In this document: piece after piece, positions 630-2,428 of the stretch
How positions within the stretch are numbered: the first letter of the stretch is position 1
Layout of the letters: each line of letters opens with the position of its first letter
From: a virus
Taxonomy: Duplodnaviria; Heunggongvirae; Uroviricota; Caudoviricetes
DNA: 5,181 bases
Strand: one strand, 5' to 3'
IMG/VR virus record: IMGVR_UViG_2778261227_000008
The notes under the pieces: generated by a model
Told to the model about the DNA's origin: nothing
The model's database searches: none
The model's input: only the letters and a program-made list of their open reading frames with translations
Program-made: the position numbers and the translations under genes

Positions 630-1055
630 TCAATGCACAGCCACAATATTTCCTGCAGGGCCACCACGATTCATCTGGTTGAAACCAGCGATCGCCACTG
701 CGACAAAATCATCAGCGTCTCTCACCAGTCGTTCCCGCGTCTCCACTAGTTCCCGAAAATAGGCTGAGCTATGGCTGCGCATTCGGGCCACCAGCAGAGG
801 TGGCATTGCTTTTTCGATAGCTGGTAACAACGCCTGAATTTTTTTAACCGCATCAGGGGTGTCTTTCTCCACCCAGCGGAAAATTTTCTGAGTATTGCGT
901 GCCAGGGCTTCCGGATGGCTGTCGTCATACAGTTCCGGGAACGTAATTCCCAGTTCGAAATACGCTTTGGTAATCTCTGCAGCCGGTACTTTCTCGCCGT
1001 CCGGATGTGCCCAGGCATTCATCGCCATGCGGATGTGTTCATGCTTGATTTTCAT
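630..1055 (-). CDS. ydaT: YdaT-like protein, 141 aa (CII-like regulator of Rac/CP-933P-type prophages; historically annotated as a toxin)
   Basis: ORF-track protein starts MKIKHEHI and is 141 aa. It lies immediately downstream of a Cro-like gene, with ATGA start/stop overlap at 1052-1055. Size and synteny match Rac ydaS-ydaT. The name is from recollection of the family, not a search. Confidence 0.7.
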   Translation of the reverse strand: MKIKHEHIRMAMNAWAHPDGEKVPAAEITKAYFELGITFPELYDDSHPEALARNTQKIFRWVEKDTPDAVKKIQALLPAIEKAMPPLLVARMRSHSSAYFRELVETRERLVRDADDFVAVAIAGFNQMNRGGPAGNIVAVH

Positions 1056-1354
1056 GAATCAACTCCATCAGATAAGCATGCACTACAATCACCTTCAGCA
1101 TGGACTACATGTGTTTGCCCCAAACGAATGCCGCTCGCATACTCAGGCCAAATAAGCTCCCAATCATGGGGTCGTAGCTCCGCCCTACTTACCTGGCCTT
1201 CCGTCGCAGATTCGATCATAAGGGCGCGGGTTGGAGATATAGCTGCTCGTCCAGACGCCATTTGCGATAAGTAAGATGGCGATACACCAAGTCTGGCCGC
1301 GAATTTCTTAGCATCACCAACTCTCAATGATTTAATAAACTCTTTTAATGTCAT
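1052..1354 (-). CDS. ydaS: YdaS-like Cro/HTH (XRE-family) DNA-binding protein, 100 aa
   Basis: ORF-track protein contains LGVSPSYLSQMASGRAAISPTRALMIESATEGQVSRAELRP, a typical HTH recognition-helix pattern. SD-like GAGGAAGG sits just upstream of ATG at 1354. It is divergent from the repressor-like gene and coupled to ydaT. Confidence 0.7.
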   Translation of the reverse strand: MTLKEFIKSLRVGDAKKFAARLGVSPSYLSQMASGRAAISPTRALMIESATEGQVSRAELRPHDWELIWPEYASGIRLGQTHVVHAEGDCSACLSDGVDS

Positions 1355-1382
1355 ACCTTCCTCGGTTTAGTGTTTTTTTGCG

Positions 1383-1445
1383 AGTTTAGTGTTTAATAAA
1401 CCATTAAGTCAAGTATTTGCTTGTTTAGTGATTACTAAAGATAAT
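1383..1445. promoter_or_regulatory. Divergent promoter/operator region between ydaS and the repressor gene
   Basis: Minus-strand promoter candidate: -35 TTGACT (rc of 1407-1412), 18-nt spacer, -10 TAAACT (rc of 1383-1388). Plus-strand candidate: -35 TTGCTT 1417-1422, 17-nt spacer, -10 GATAAT 1440-1445. The 11-bp palindrome GTTTA-A-TAAAC at 1391-1401 lies in the minus-promoter spacer. Direct repeats GTTTAGTG(T/A)TT at 1365-1375, 1384-1394 and 1423-1433. Elements read by eye, not scored. Confidence 0.5.
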
Positions 1446-1451
1446 TACCAC

Positions 1452-1823
1452 ATGCAAAAAAAAGAAATTCGCCGTTTACGTCTCAAGGAGTGGTTTAAAG
1501 ATAAAACTCTGCCACCCAAAGAGAAGAGCTACCTATCTCAACTAATGAGTGGGAGAGCCTCGTTTGGAGAAAAGGCTGCCAGAAGAATAGAGCAAACATA
1601 CGGGATGCCGGAAGGGTATCTGGATGCGGAATACGCAGAACAACCGGAGGTTTCTCCACCACATGCAGGGTTAACGTCTAATCAACTGGAATTATTGCAG
1701 ATTTTTTCAGCCTTCCCTGAGGATGAGCAACGCCAGATAATCAGCGAGTTAAAGCAGAAAAAAGAATCAATGGAAGACCTCATAGCGAGATGGATTGCGG
1801 CGCAAAAATGCCGCCGCGCCTGA
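1452..1823 (+). CDS. paaR2: HTH transcriptional regulator of a three-component toxin-antitoxin operon, 123 aa; occupies the prophage repressor position
   Basis: ATG at 1452, in frame within track ORF 1389..1823; the GTG at 1389 has no SD. XRE-like segment EKSYLSQLMSGRASFGEKAARRIEQTYGMPEGYL. It is divergent from the Cro-like gene and followed by an antitoxin-toxin pair. Identified as paaR2 from memory of the E. coli O157:H7 paaR2-paaA2-parE2 system; paralogue number not verifiable here. Confidence 0.65.
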   Translation: MQKKEIRRLRLKEWFKDKTLPPKEKSYLSQLMSGRASFGEKAARRIEQTYGMPEGYLDAEYAEQPEVSPPHAGLTSNQLELLQIFSAFPEDEQRQIISELKQKKESMEDLIARWIAAQKCRRA

Positions 1824-1843
1824 GTTATAAAACCGGAGGAAAC

Positions 1844-2035
1844 ATGAATAGAGCCCTTTCACCAATGGTTTCTGAGTTTGAAACCATTGAACAAGAAAAC
1901 AGTTACAACGAATGGCTGCGTGCGAAAGTAGCAACGAGCCTTGCAGATCCGCGCCCAGCAATTCCTCATGACGAAGTTGAGCGCAGAATGGCAGAACGCT
2001 TTGCTAAAATGCGCAAGGAACGGAGCAAGCAGTAA
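1844..2035 (+). CDS. paaA2: Small antitoxin, 63 aa (PaaA2-like)
   Basis: ATG at 1844 with SD GGAGGA at 1835-1840, in frame within track ORF 1790..2035. Product is MNRALSPMVSEFETIEQENSYNEWLRAKVATSLADPRPAIPHDEVERRMAERFAKMRKERSKQ. Its stop is 1 nt before the toxin start. Size and position fit the antitoxin of the ParE2 system, as recalled. Confidence 0.7.
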   Translation: MNRALSPMVSEFETIEQENSYNEWLRAKVATSLADPRPAIPHDEVERRMAERFAKMRKERSKQ

Positions 2036-2036
2036 A

Positions 2037-2315
2037 ATGTTACCCGTATTATGGCTTGAAAGCGCAGATACCGACTTGGATGATATAACTGGTTATATTG
2101 CTCGTTTCGACATAGATGCGGCAGAACGCTTATGGCAGCGATTAAGGGGTTGTGTGCTGCCGTTATCCGAACACCCGTATTTATACCCACCAAGCGACAG
2201 GGTGCCTGGCTTGCGTGAGATTGTGGCCCACCCTAACTATATAATTCTATACCGCGTAACAACATCAAGCGTTGAAGTAGTAAACGTGATCCACGCAAGA
2301 CGCCAGTTTCCCTAA
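2037..2315 (+). CDS. parE2: RelE/ParE-superfamily toxin, 92 aa (ParE2-like)
   Basis: ATG at 2037, in frame within track ORF 1941..2315. C-terminal pattern YIILYRVTTSSVEVVNVIHARRQFP is typical of ParE/RelE folds. Tightly coupled to the upstream antitoxin. Confidence 0.7.
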   Translation: MLPVLWLESADTDLDDITGYIARFDIDAAERLWQRLRGCVLPLSEHPYLYPPSDRVPGLREIVAHPNYIILYRVTTSSVEVVNVIHARRQFP

Positions 2316-2386
2316 CTTTCACTACCAATAGAAACATAACAACCGCAACGACTTTATCAAAAGCGTTGTGTTTGTTTCGTGTTGTG

Positions 2387-2428
2387 GTTTAGTTTTTACT
2401 TGACTTGAGTTTAATGTTTATTAAACTA
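2387..2428 (+). promoter_or_regulatory. Second operator/promoter copy (PL-like) pointing rightward toward the ydfA-like gene
   Basis: -35 TTGACT 2400-2405, 16-nt spacer, -10 TAAACT 2422-2427. Palindrome GTTTA-T-TAAAC at 2416-2426. The 22-mer gagtttaatgtttattaaacta (2407-2428) matches gagtttagtgtttaataaacca (1382-1403) at 19 of 22 positions. Half-site-like GTTTAGTTTTT at 2387-2397. Confidence 0.5.

Follow-up and report, generated by a model that had tools for sequence, protein, structure and literature searches.

The closest described counterpart of the locus analyzed here is the immunity switch of prophage CP-933P/Sp12 of E. coli O157:H7 (Jurenas et al. 2021, mBio 12:e02947-21, PMC8630535). 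In that study, the 97-bp paaR2-ydaS intergenic region was footprinted with PaaR2 (78 bp protected) and YdaS (27 + 32 bp), and the PR and PRM promoters were mapped. The region was reported to contain four 18-bp inverted repeats at equal spacing, with the half-site GTTTAGTAA; the well-conserved ones overlap PRM (IR1) and PR (IR3), whereas in IR2 and IR4 one half-site was not conserved. PL, downstream of parE2, was found to have the same -35 and -10 as PR and similar operators. All three promoters were repressed by both proteins in gfp reporters, PR and PL 45- to 100-fold by either; PL-gfp was ~100-fold lower with PaaR2 or YdaS, and this reporter repression is the published support for OL. PaaR2 octamerises in solution, the switch is bistable, and regulation was assigned to PaaR2, YdaS, and YdaT (PMC8630535), the function of YdaT being described there and in PMC9986795. 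The authors named pseudo-symmetrical "operators OR1-OR3" and left the exact sequences bound for later work, allowing for the use of both direct and inverted repeats (PMC8630535).

Gene context and relation to known switches

The window, a 5,181-nucleotide stretch of a Caudoviricetes record (IMGVR_UViG_2778261227_000008), is the immunity region of a CP-933P/Sp12-type lambdoid prophage. The gene order is ydaT (cII-like; 630 to 1055, minus strand; Pfam YdaT_toxin) and ydaS (cro-like; 1052 to 1354, minus strand; 100 amino acids; Pfam YdaS_toxin, HTH_3, and a weak P22_Cro match), followed by the divergent paaR2 (cI-like; 1452 to 1823, plus strand), paaA2 (1844 to 2035), and parE2 (2037 to 2315). 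The last two form a toxin-antitoxin cargo (1844 to 2315, plus strand; Pfam PaaA2 and ParE_toxin). A replication gene starts at 558, leftward on the ydaT side, and the intergenic region between paaR2 and ydaS spans 97 bp (1355 to 1451).

PaaR2 is a CI-like repressor of 123 amino acids with an N-terminal helix-turn-helix (HTH) domain and a short helical C terminus. Its residues 1 to 65 are a 100% match to PDB 7NKV/8C3K, "Phage repressor protein CI," and its identity rests on PDB and the literature, Pfam having assigned no family. A literature search around PDB 7NKV, 8C3K, and 8C3L did not find a paper on a PaaR2-DNA complex. No S24 peptidase domain was detected in PaaR2: no Pfam family matched, and the alignment shows the short helical C terminus where relatives carry PF00717. 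Because PaaR2 does not have this autocleavage domain, RecA-mediated induction is not expected.

Comparison with O157:H7 showed that the OR region (1340 to 1470, 131 bp) is 100% identical to that of many O157:H7 genomes, and a match is present in 612 of 5,426 complete E. coli genomes (about 11%). The EDL933 primers have exact matches in the window over 1355 to 1451, where F-prom-PaaR2, F-PRM, and R-PRM lie, and at 2316 to 2336. Relative to O157:H7 86-24, the gene order and the OL core (2409 to 2426) are the same and PaaR2 differs only at linker residues 66 and 67. PaaA2 is identical to the O157:H7 protein, and YdaS and ParE2 have one different residue each. Thus, the three features of a CP-933P-type PaaR2/YdaS switch, the 97-bp promoter region, the PaaR2 DNA-binding domain, and a PL downstream of parE2, are all present. 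However, the OL flanks differ (2407 is G in the window and A in O157; 2430 is C in the window and A in O157), as do 23 of 141 YdaT residues, the replication gene left of 634 is nonhomologous at the DNA level, and the sequences diverge right of about 2593. This means that the window is a mosaic relative of CP-933P rather than CP-933P itself.

The organization is that of a lambdoid OR/OL region, with divergent repressor and cro-like genes, a short spacer, and multiple dyads over back-to-back promoters. Lambda and the window share divergent PR/PRM promoters, several dyad operators in the interval that separates the repressor gene from cro, a further operator cluster at PL past the repressor operon, a leaderless repressor mRNA, an oligomeric repressor, and bistability. 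In both, cargo genes follow the repressor gene and precede OL: rexAB in lambda and paaA2-parE2 here. However, the operators have no sequence similarity; lambda has three 17-bp operators compared to four 18-bp repeats in the published CP-933P analysis, its OR and OL are about 2.4 kb apart compared to about 1.0 kb, and its CII is replaced here by the POU-like YdaT. The switch therefore works like that of lambda, but PaaR2, not having the S24 (LexA-like) autocleavage domain, is not a classical member of the CI family in this respect.

Operators and promoters at OR and OL

The initial annotation of this DNA had reported a duplicated 22-bp unit, each copy with an 11-bp palindrome. Both the sequences and the positions were exact: GAGTTTAGTGTTTAATAAACCA (1382 to 1403) and GAGTTTAATGTTTATTAAACTA (2407 to 2428) match at 19 of 22 positions, with 3 mismatches, and two such matches occurred in none of 200 dinucleotide-preserving shuffles. 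The perfect 5+1+5 palindrome GTTTANTAAAC occurs in the window solely at 1391 to 1401 and 2416 to 2426 (0 of 200 shuffles). GTTTAGT has four copies (1365, 1384, 1423, and 2387), all inside the two control regions, compared to 0.53 expected, and no shuffle reached four. Half-site-like repeats had been noted at these same positions and are indeed present at all four, but the copy at 2387 reads GTTTAGTTTTT and fits GTTTAGTG(T/A)TT less well than the other three. The 22-mers with their -35 elements also align in inverted orientation (arms 1391 to 1414 and 2403 to 2426, 24 nt, 83% complementary); this is because the site itself is a near-palindrome.

At OR, the promoter scan placed PR on the minus strand (1383 to 1412), with a -35 TTGACT (1412 to 1407), an 18-nt spacer, and a -10 TAAACT (1388 to 1383). 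PR drives ydaS-ydaT and the replication genes leftward, and 5′ RACE in O157:H7, done on identical sequence, agrees with it (PMC8630535). PRM (1417 to 1452, plus strand) scored under the scan threshold, and its hexamers were read from the sequence: a -35 TTGCTT (1417 to 1422), a 16-nt spacer, and a -10 GATAAT (1439 to 1444). The PRM transcript begins with the A of the paaR2 start codon (1452) and is thus leaderless; the published start of transcription is the start of translation, with the protein N terminus MQKKE (PMC8630535).

Two strong operators lie between these promoter elements. The distal one, the 18-bp dyad GTTTAGTGT/TTAATAAAC (1384 to 1401), is a perfect GTTTA-N8-TAAAC at -68 from the paaR2 ATG, lies between the PR -35 and -10, and contains the first 5+1+5 palindrome (1391 to 1401). 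It falls within the 78-bp PaaR2 footprint published on identical DNA (PMC8630535). The proximal one, GTTTAGTGA/TTACTAAAG (1423 to 1440), lies at -29 between the PRM -35 and -10 and has one mismatch to the dyad; its filling should turn paaR2 transcription off. Two weaker repeats accompany them. A half-operator, GTTTAGTGTTTTTTTGCG (1365 to 1382), lies over the PR transcript start region and begins with GTTTAGT; just one of its half-sites is conserved, and its columns are not conserved among relatives in the anchor-based alignment. A weak fourth repeat (1404 to 1421) spans the back-to-back -35 elements GTCAAG-ta-TTTGCTT, and its core, GTCAAGtaTTTGCTT, is nearly invariant across relatives. Judging from the prose and primers of the published work, the proximal operator appears to be IR1, the weak repeat IR2, the distal operator IR3, and the half-operator IR4 of Jurenas et al.

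A second cluster of the same operators is found at the promoter beyond the repressor operon. The main OL operator, GTTTAATGT/TTATTAAAC (2409 to 2426), is a perfect GTTTA-N8-TAAAC at +957 that is identical in O157:H7; its right half furnishes the PL -10, and it contains the second 5+1+5 palindrome (2416 to 2426). A partial operator, GTTTAGTTTTTACTTGAC (2387 to 2404), with GTTTAGT at 2387 and two mismatches to the dyad, overlaps the PL -35, and relatives keep a gtttanTTTTTACTTGAC motif ahead of their main OL site. No third conserved OL site was found upstream of 2387, where the window and O157:H7 differ. PL (2400 to 2427, plus strand; promoter scan) has a -35 TTGACT (2400 to 2405), a 16-nt spacer, and a -10 TAAACT (2422 to 2427), and fires rightward toward the DUF1391 gene and the dicB/kil side. 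Its hexamers are identical to those of PR, which bears out the leftward and rightward TTGACT/TAAACT pairs noted earlier. The centers of the OR and OL sites are 1025 bp apart.

Taken with the published data, the 22-bp units are very probably the principal OR and OL operators of a CP-933P/Sp12-type immunity switch, that is, 18-bp dyads inside sigma-70 promoters that are controlled by PaaR2 and YdaS. Of the earlier proposal of an OR/OL-type pair for a single repressor, the pair over divergent promoters is upheld by gene context, OR identity, published footprints and reporters, and family conservation, but the single regulator is not, both PaaR2 and YdaS being binders. The DNase I footprinting that had been suggested as a check is already published, together with EMSA, for both proteins on DNA identical to the OR of the window (PMC8630535). 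Therefore, since the operators, promoters, and regulators were characterized in 2021, the units are already known sites and the finding carries no new biology. The element matters as the control center of a prophage switch that governs a ParE-family toxin-antitoxin pair in O157:H7.

The operators in related loci

The family sample consisted of 62 related loci, many of them phylogenetically close to one another, and drew on several orders of Proteobacteria. Two positions of the 18-bp dyad recur upstream of the repressor, at about -67 and -29 from its start, and a third follows the repressor operon. Of the 62, 44 had a perfect GTTTA-N8-TAAAC at about -67 and 27 had one past the end of the repressor operon with the promoter context unchanged; 23 relatives have perfect sites at both OR and OL, and the -29 site was found in most. 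No perfect copy was found in 151.8 kb of upstream flank. Because the predicted HTH residues are invariant in the sampled family, repressor-operator covariation was not applicable, and site conservation was used instead.

Since the outer half-sites are what the 5+8+5 scan selects for, an alignment anchored on the -35 elements is the only unbiased view of their conservation. Its most conserved columns were AGTTTA and ACTAAAC, those of the distal OR operator having the highest information. The column profile comprised 37 distinct sequences, leaving out 16 loci without the GTCAAG...TTGC anchoring (mainly Pasteurellaceae, Orbaceae, and Burkholderia-type, with sites spaced differently), nine further poorly anchored loci, and duplicate sequences. 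Across bacterial orders, the dyad was conserved in its spacer bases as well, and the OL/PL promoter context was conserved in relatives. The scan of related prophages that had been proposed at the outset thus found the OR/OL pairing kept in the form of the 18-bp dyad, but the 5+1+5 palindrome in a minority of sites.

The PaaR2 N-terminal domain is common to S24-peptidase (LexA/CI-type) repressors of Serratia, Yersinia, Erwinia, and Proteus prophages. The DNA-binding domains are 60 to 85% identical, with an invariant predicted HTH segment (about residues 24 to 47). These relatives have the same OR architecture (AGTTTA-N8-TAAAC, 5 to 6 nt, GTCAAGtaTTTGCTT-GTTTAG-N6-ACTAAT) and the same OL/PL context. 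However, their C terminus carries PF00717 (about 210 amino acids) compared to a 60-residue helical tail in PaaR2, and the interior of the distal OR site has the opposite orientation in the window. One modest point added by this analysis is that the operator/promoter cassette and the DNA-binding domain are spread over several Proteobacteria orders, where the domain is fused in some cases to an SOS-cleavable S24 domain and in others to a noncleavable tail.

Recognition unit and operation of the switch

The initial annotation took the 11-bp palindrome GTTTA-N-TAAAC itself as the operator unit. It is perfect at both sites and absent elsewhere in the window, and the inner TaAAc is moderately conserved among enterobacterial relatives. 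However, among the distinct 18-mers of relatives it occurs in just 5 of 28 at OR and 3 of 19 at OL, it is missing from the second strong site (1423 to 1440), and neither OR nor OL carries it in the closest paralogous E. coli paaR-paaA-parE system, where the 5+8+5 dyad is kept. In the lambda, 434, and P22 operators, an HTH dimer reads successive major grooves on one face of the DNA, a spacing that half-site centers 6 bp apart do not fit. The published repeat analysis also found 18-bp palindromes (PMC8630535). It is thus highly improbable that the 11-bp palindrome is what the repressor recognizes. A second possibility is that direct repeats rather than dyads are what the regulators read (GTTTAGTG at 1365, 1384, and 1423, on one strand), for instance with a PaaR2 octamer wrapping head-to-tail units (the "operators OR1-OR3"). 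A direct-repeat family (D1; 1377 to 1400, 1416 to 1439, and 2402 to 2425) is consistent with this. Against it, the right half-site ACTAAAC is as conserved in relatives as the left AGTTTA, conservation of the 1365 repeat does not extend beyond the lineage of the window, and the distal OR site of the window is flipped relative to the family norm in an otherwise unchanged architecture, as fits a symmetric site. We consider direct-repeat reading improbable, if somewhat less so than recognition of the 11-bp palindrome.

The two remaining explanations assign the similarity to something other than a phage repressor. Classical antitoxins bind palindromes at their own promoters, and the palindromes here flank the toxin-antitoxin operon, as they might if they were an autoregulatory operator bound by a PaaA2-ParE2 complex, as in classical type II modules. 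But PaaA2 (63 amino acids) matches PF21217 alone, with no RHH, HTH, or AbrB domain among its Pfam matches and hence without the DNA-binding domain of a type II antitoxin; the OR/OL architecture also occurs in relatives without toxin-antitoxin genes, and the published work assigns regulation to PaaR2, YdaS, and YdaT (PMC8630535). This explanation is hardly credible. The same holds for a mere duplication of a promoter with no operator function. The -35 and -10 hexamers are indeed the same at both sites, but the dyad spacer bases are conserved too, across bacterial orders, the similar site at 1423 to 1440 sits in a different promoter, PRM, and the idea is refuted by the published footprints on identical OR DNA and by the 45- to 100-fold repression of PR and PL (PMC8630535).

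The second point that we add is thus that the recognized symmetry is the 18-bp dyad GTTTA-N8-TAAAC (1384 to 1401, 1423 to 1440, and 2409 to 2426), extendable to AGTTTAgT-N4-AcTAAACT, with the 5+1+5 palindrome being an inner extra half-site of it. The two principal dyads, at OR and OL, are each set in a sigma-70 promoter (TTGACT ... TAAACT), and one half-site of each doubles as the -10 hexamer. In the operation that we propose, PaaR2, oligomeric in solution, would bind through its HTH domain at the distal OR operator and at OL (2409 to 2426) and block RNA polymerase at PR (leftward, ydaS-ydaT-replication) and PL (rightward, the DUF1391/dicB side). At higher occupancy it would also fill the weaker site at 1423 to 1440 in PRM and limit its own synthesis. 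The Cro-like YdaS binds the same region and would do so with the reverse order of preference, generating a bistable switch, and PaaR2 octamers may loop OR and OL together over 1025 bp. This scheme joins what our analysis provides, namely identity to the studied DNA, promoter geometry, and conservation of the dyad and the OR/OL pairing, to contacted bases, a filling order, and looping that we infer.

A speculative extension, to which we give a small chance, concerns the inner GTTTA (1391 to 1395 and 2416 to 2420), which is offset by 7 bp from the outer one. It may give the main PR and PL operators two overlapping binding registers, of which PaaR2 and YdaS would use different ones; the filling order would then follow from which register each protein takes and not from how tightly the two bind a shared site. 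If true, having the OR interior flipped would matter functionally in the lineage of the window.

Finally, paaA2-parE2 lies between paaR2 and OL and is carried as cargo within the repressor operon. In relatives without cargo, OL is found 54 to 142 nt after the repressor stop, and the OR/OL architecture is the same. The third point added here is that cargo recurs in the interval that separates the repressor gene from OL, which in this case holds paaA2-parE2.

Immunity region and its published counterpart

Analysis of ORFs and Pfam matches showed that the two 22-mers lie in a lambdoid immunity region, oriented in reverse of lambda's conventional map. A replication gene (start at 558, minus strand) runs off the left end. 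It is followed by ydaT (630-1055) and ydaS (1052-1354; YdaS, HTH_3, and weak P22_Cro matches), also on the minus strand, a 97-bp gap containing the right operator region (OR), and, on the plus strand, paaR2 (1452-1823), paaA2 (1844-2035), and parE2 (2037-2315). The left operator (OL), containing the second 22-mer, and then a DUF1391 gene lie 3′ of parE2. In its RefSeq annotation, the best E. coli match has the same gene order, and dicB, ydfD, and an exonuclease gene follow on the right. PR fires leftward to ydaS, and PRM and PL fire rightward. Two other repeats were seen to the left. TTGATTTTCATGAATCAA, a perfect TTGATT-N6-AATCAA inverted repeat across the ydaS stop and ydaT start (1045-1062), is a match to the high-affinity operator OM published for YdaT (PMC9986795). 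Copies of GTCGTGAC at 101, 111, 121, 142, 371, and 413 (101-150 and 371-421), inside the replication gene, resemble the iterons of an origin set within an O-like gene, the arrangement found in lambda.

The 22-mer operator feature is genuine and belongs to a system that has already been described and characterized by experiment. Jurenas et al. 2021 (PMC8630535) studied the locus in prophage CP-933P of E. coli O157:H7 EDL933, where the paaR2-ydaS intergenic region is 97 bp. They mapped PR933P and PRM933P by 5′ RACE, found the paaR2 mRNA to be leaderless, and showed by EMSA and DNase I footprinting that PaaR2 protects ∼78 bp and YdaS 27 and 32 bp. They also described four 18-bp inverted repeats, evenly spaced and with the half-site consensus GTTTAGTAA; gfp reporters of PR, PRM, and PL were each repressed by PaaR2 and by YdaS, and the locus was bistable. 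Thus, the footprinting and reporter experiments proposed in the initial annotation have essentially been published, on identical OR DNA.

The window contains exact matches to the EDL933 primers of that study at 1355-1380, 1379-1399, 1426-1451, and 2316-2336, and the PL reverse primer is one base off. Many O157:H7 genomes have the segment 1340-1470 with 100% identity, and a match to it is present in 612 of 5426 complete E. coli genomes. Compared to O157:H7 86-24, OR is identical and OL differs only at 2407 (G in the window versus A) and 2430 (C versus A), leaving the core at 2409-2426 unchanged. PaaR2 differs solely at linker residues 66 and 67, its residues 1 to 65 being those of PDB 7NKV/8C3K; PaaA2 is identical, YdaS and ParE2 differ at one residue each, and YdaT differs at 23. 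The published OR results therefore transfer directly. Collinearity with O157 is lost left of 634 and right of ∼2593, and the replication gene has no DNA match to its 86-24 counterpart, the blastn match starting only at 634. The window as a whole is a mosaic relative.

Symmetry of the operator sites

The 22-mers at 1382-1403 and 2407-2428 were found as annotated, differing at three positions, and none of the dinucleotide-preserving shuffles of the window gave a second 22-mer match. The 5+1+5 palindrome GTTTANTAAAC occurs at 1391-1401 and 2416-2426 and nowhere else in the window, and GTTTAGT has four copies (1365, 1384, 1423, and 2387) compared to 0.53 expected, all inside the two control regions. 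A sigma-70 scan bore out the divergent promoter pair, PR being TTGACT-18-TAAACT on the minus strand (1412 to 1383) and PL TTGACT-16-TAAACT on the plus strand (2400-2427). As read from the sequence, the OR distal dyad lies between the PR -35 and -10, its left half being the minus-strand -10, and the OL dyad is placed likewise in PL. A weaker dyad at 1423-1440 lies between a poor PRM -35, TTGCTT, and GATAAT, seven bases ahead of the leaderless start.

Each 22-mer holds two overlapping symmetries, the palindrome (centers 1396 and 2421) and an 18-bp dyad, GTTTA-N8-TAAAC (centers 1392/1393 and 2417/2418), which can be lengthened to AGTTTAgT-N4-AcTAAACT. Of the two, only the dyad symmetry is present in the third strong site, GTTTAGTGATTACTAAAG at 1423-1440. 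Since 25 N-terminal residues, among them a block over the predicted HTH segment, are invariant in 18 aligned proteins, the operators should also be conserved, and this was found among PaaR2 homologues and 63 genomic loci (Enterobacterales, Pasteurellales, Orbales, Burkholderiales, Nitrosomonadales, and others). The relatives share the upstream architecture gAGTTTA-N8-TAAAC, 5 to 6 nt, GTCAAGtaTTTGCTT, GTTTAG-N6-ACTAATcaaaat, ATG. In a scan for GTTTA-N8-TAAAC, most loci had sites near -67 and -29 relative to the start codon of the repressor gene (-68 and -29 in the window). Of 62 loci, 44 had a perfect copy at the upstream position and 27 had one 3′ of the repressor operon, compared to none in 151.8 kb of upstream flank. 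The palindrome, however, was found in only 5 of 28 distinct OR 18-mers and 3 of 19 distinct OL 18-mers.

Therefore, the OR/OL switch proposed in the initial annotation is correct in essence, given the published data for identical OR DNA and the family conservation, but the palindrome it emphasized appears to be an additional, internal copy of the half-site rather than the recognition unit. Besides its rarity, it is missing from the closest paralogous E. coli paaR-paaA-parE system, which has 5+8+5 dyads at OR and OL, and its half-site centers, 6 bp apart, misfit an HTH dimer, whereas the 18-bp dyad is the size of the lambda and P22 operators. Recognition of direct repeats instead of the dyad was left open by Jurenas et al. 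(PMC8630535). However, in an alignment anchored on the -35 elements only, both half-sites were equally conserved, which argues for the dyad; information was highest in the outer AGTTTA and ACTAAAC columns and moderate in the interior, and columns left of the site were not conserved. The published footprints and the repression contradict a pure promoter duplication as the source of the likeness. An antitoxin operator of the classical type is contradicted too, as PaaA2 has no DNA-binding domain and the operators also occur in relatives free of toxin-antitoxin genes.

The OR distal 20-mer (1383-1402) is the reverse complement (19/20) of AGTTTATTAAACACTAAACT, typical of the family (L020, the Yersinia aleksiciae locus, and most relatives). 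The interior of this site is flipped in the window's lineage, which is why the 22-mers read as direct and not mirror repeats. Within ydaS, ATTTAATAAAC (1330-1340) is a one-mismatch copy of the palindrome, and its TTTAATAAAC recurs exactly at 1392-1401. This copy is probably due to chance because it has no matching outer half-site.

Regulation and repressor architecture

In the published work on the identical OR DNA, the protection by PaaR2 and by YdaS covers PR and PRM. At low levels, PaaR2 represses PR and PL while stimulating PRM mildly; at high levels of PaaR2 or YdaS, all three promoters are repressed (PMC8630535). The strong sites would fill first, and autoregulation may act through the weak site at 1423-1440. 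Because PaaR2 is reported to octamerize (PMC8630535), looping between OR and OL, with centers 1025 bp apart, would also be possible.

Unlike lambda CI, PaaR2 (1452-1823) has no S24 autocleavage domain; PaaR2-type proteins have a helical tail of ∼60 residues in its place. Repressors of ∼210 amino acids in Serratia, Yersinia, Erwinia, and Proteus (among homologues P0060-P0118) carry an S24 peptidase domain behind a DNA-binding domain 60 to 85% identical to that of PaaR2, so that the two types differ by a domain swap. Lacking this domain, the version of the switch with PaaR2 should be blind to RecA-mediated (SOS) cleavage.

Left operator and cargo slot

The downstream sites have a context in common: gtttanTTTTTACTTGAC, 3 to 5 nt, and GTTTA-N8-TAAACt. 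It comprises a -35 TTGAC and then an operator that supplies the -10, TAAACT, with its right half; this promoter is directed away from the repressor gene. The window OL (2387-2427) fits this exactly. The distance from the repressor stop codon to OL ranges from 54 nt to 2.3 kb (1824-2408 in the window; related loci L002-L060), with same-strand (plus) ORFs when long; paaA2-parE2 occupies it in the window. This interval is a recurrent cargo slot, comparable to the rexAB slot of lambda.

E. coli STEC17-183 (L065, 1940-3100) has a paralogous immunity region, paaR-relB-parE, whose operators have diverged (OR GTTTATACACAACTAAAT and OL GTTTATTTTTGTATAAAC) and whose replication module differs (a DUF1376 protein and replication protein P). 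It may be the paaR1-type system. A G+C-rich stem just 3′ of the PL start (2441-2459; CACCCCGCCCCACAGAATG region), called terminator-like on the minus strand by the scan, is also kept in O157:H7 and in this paralogous locus and may serve the PL transcript as a leader or nut-like RNA element.
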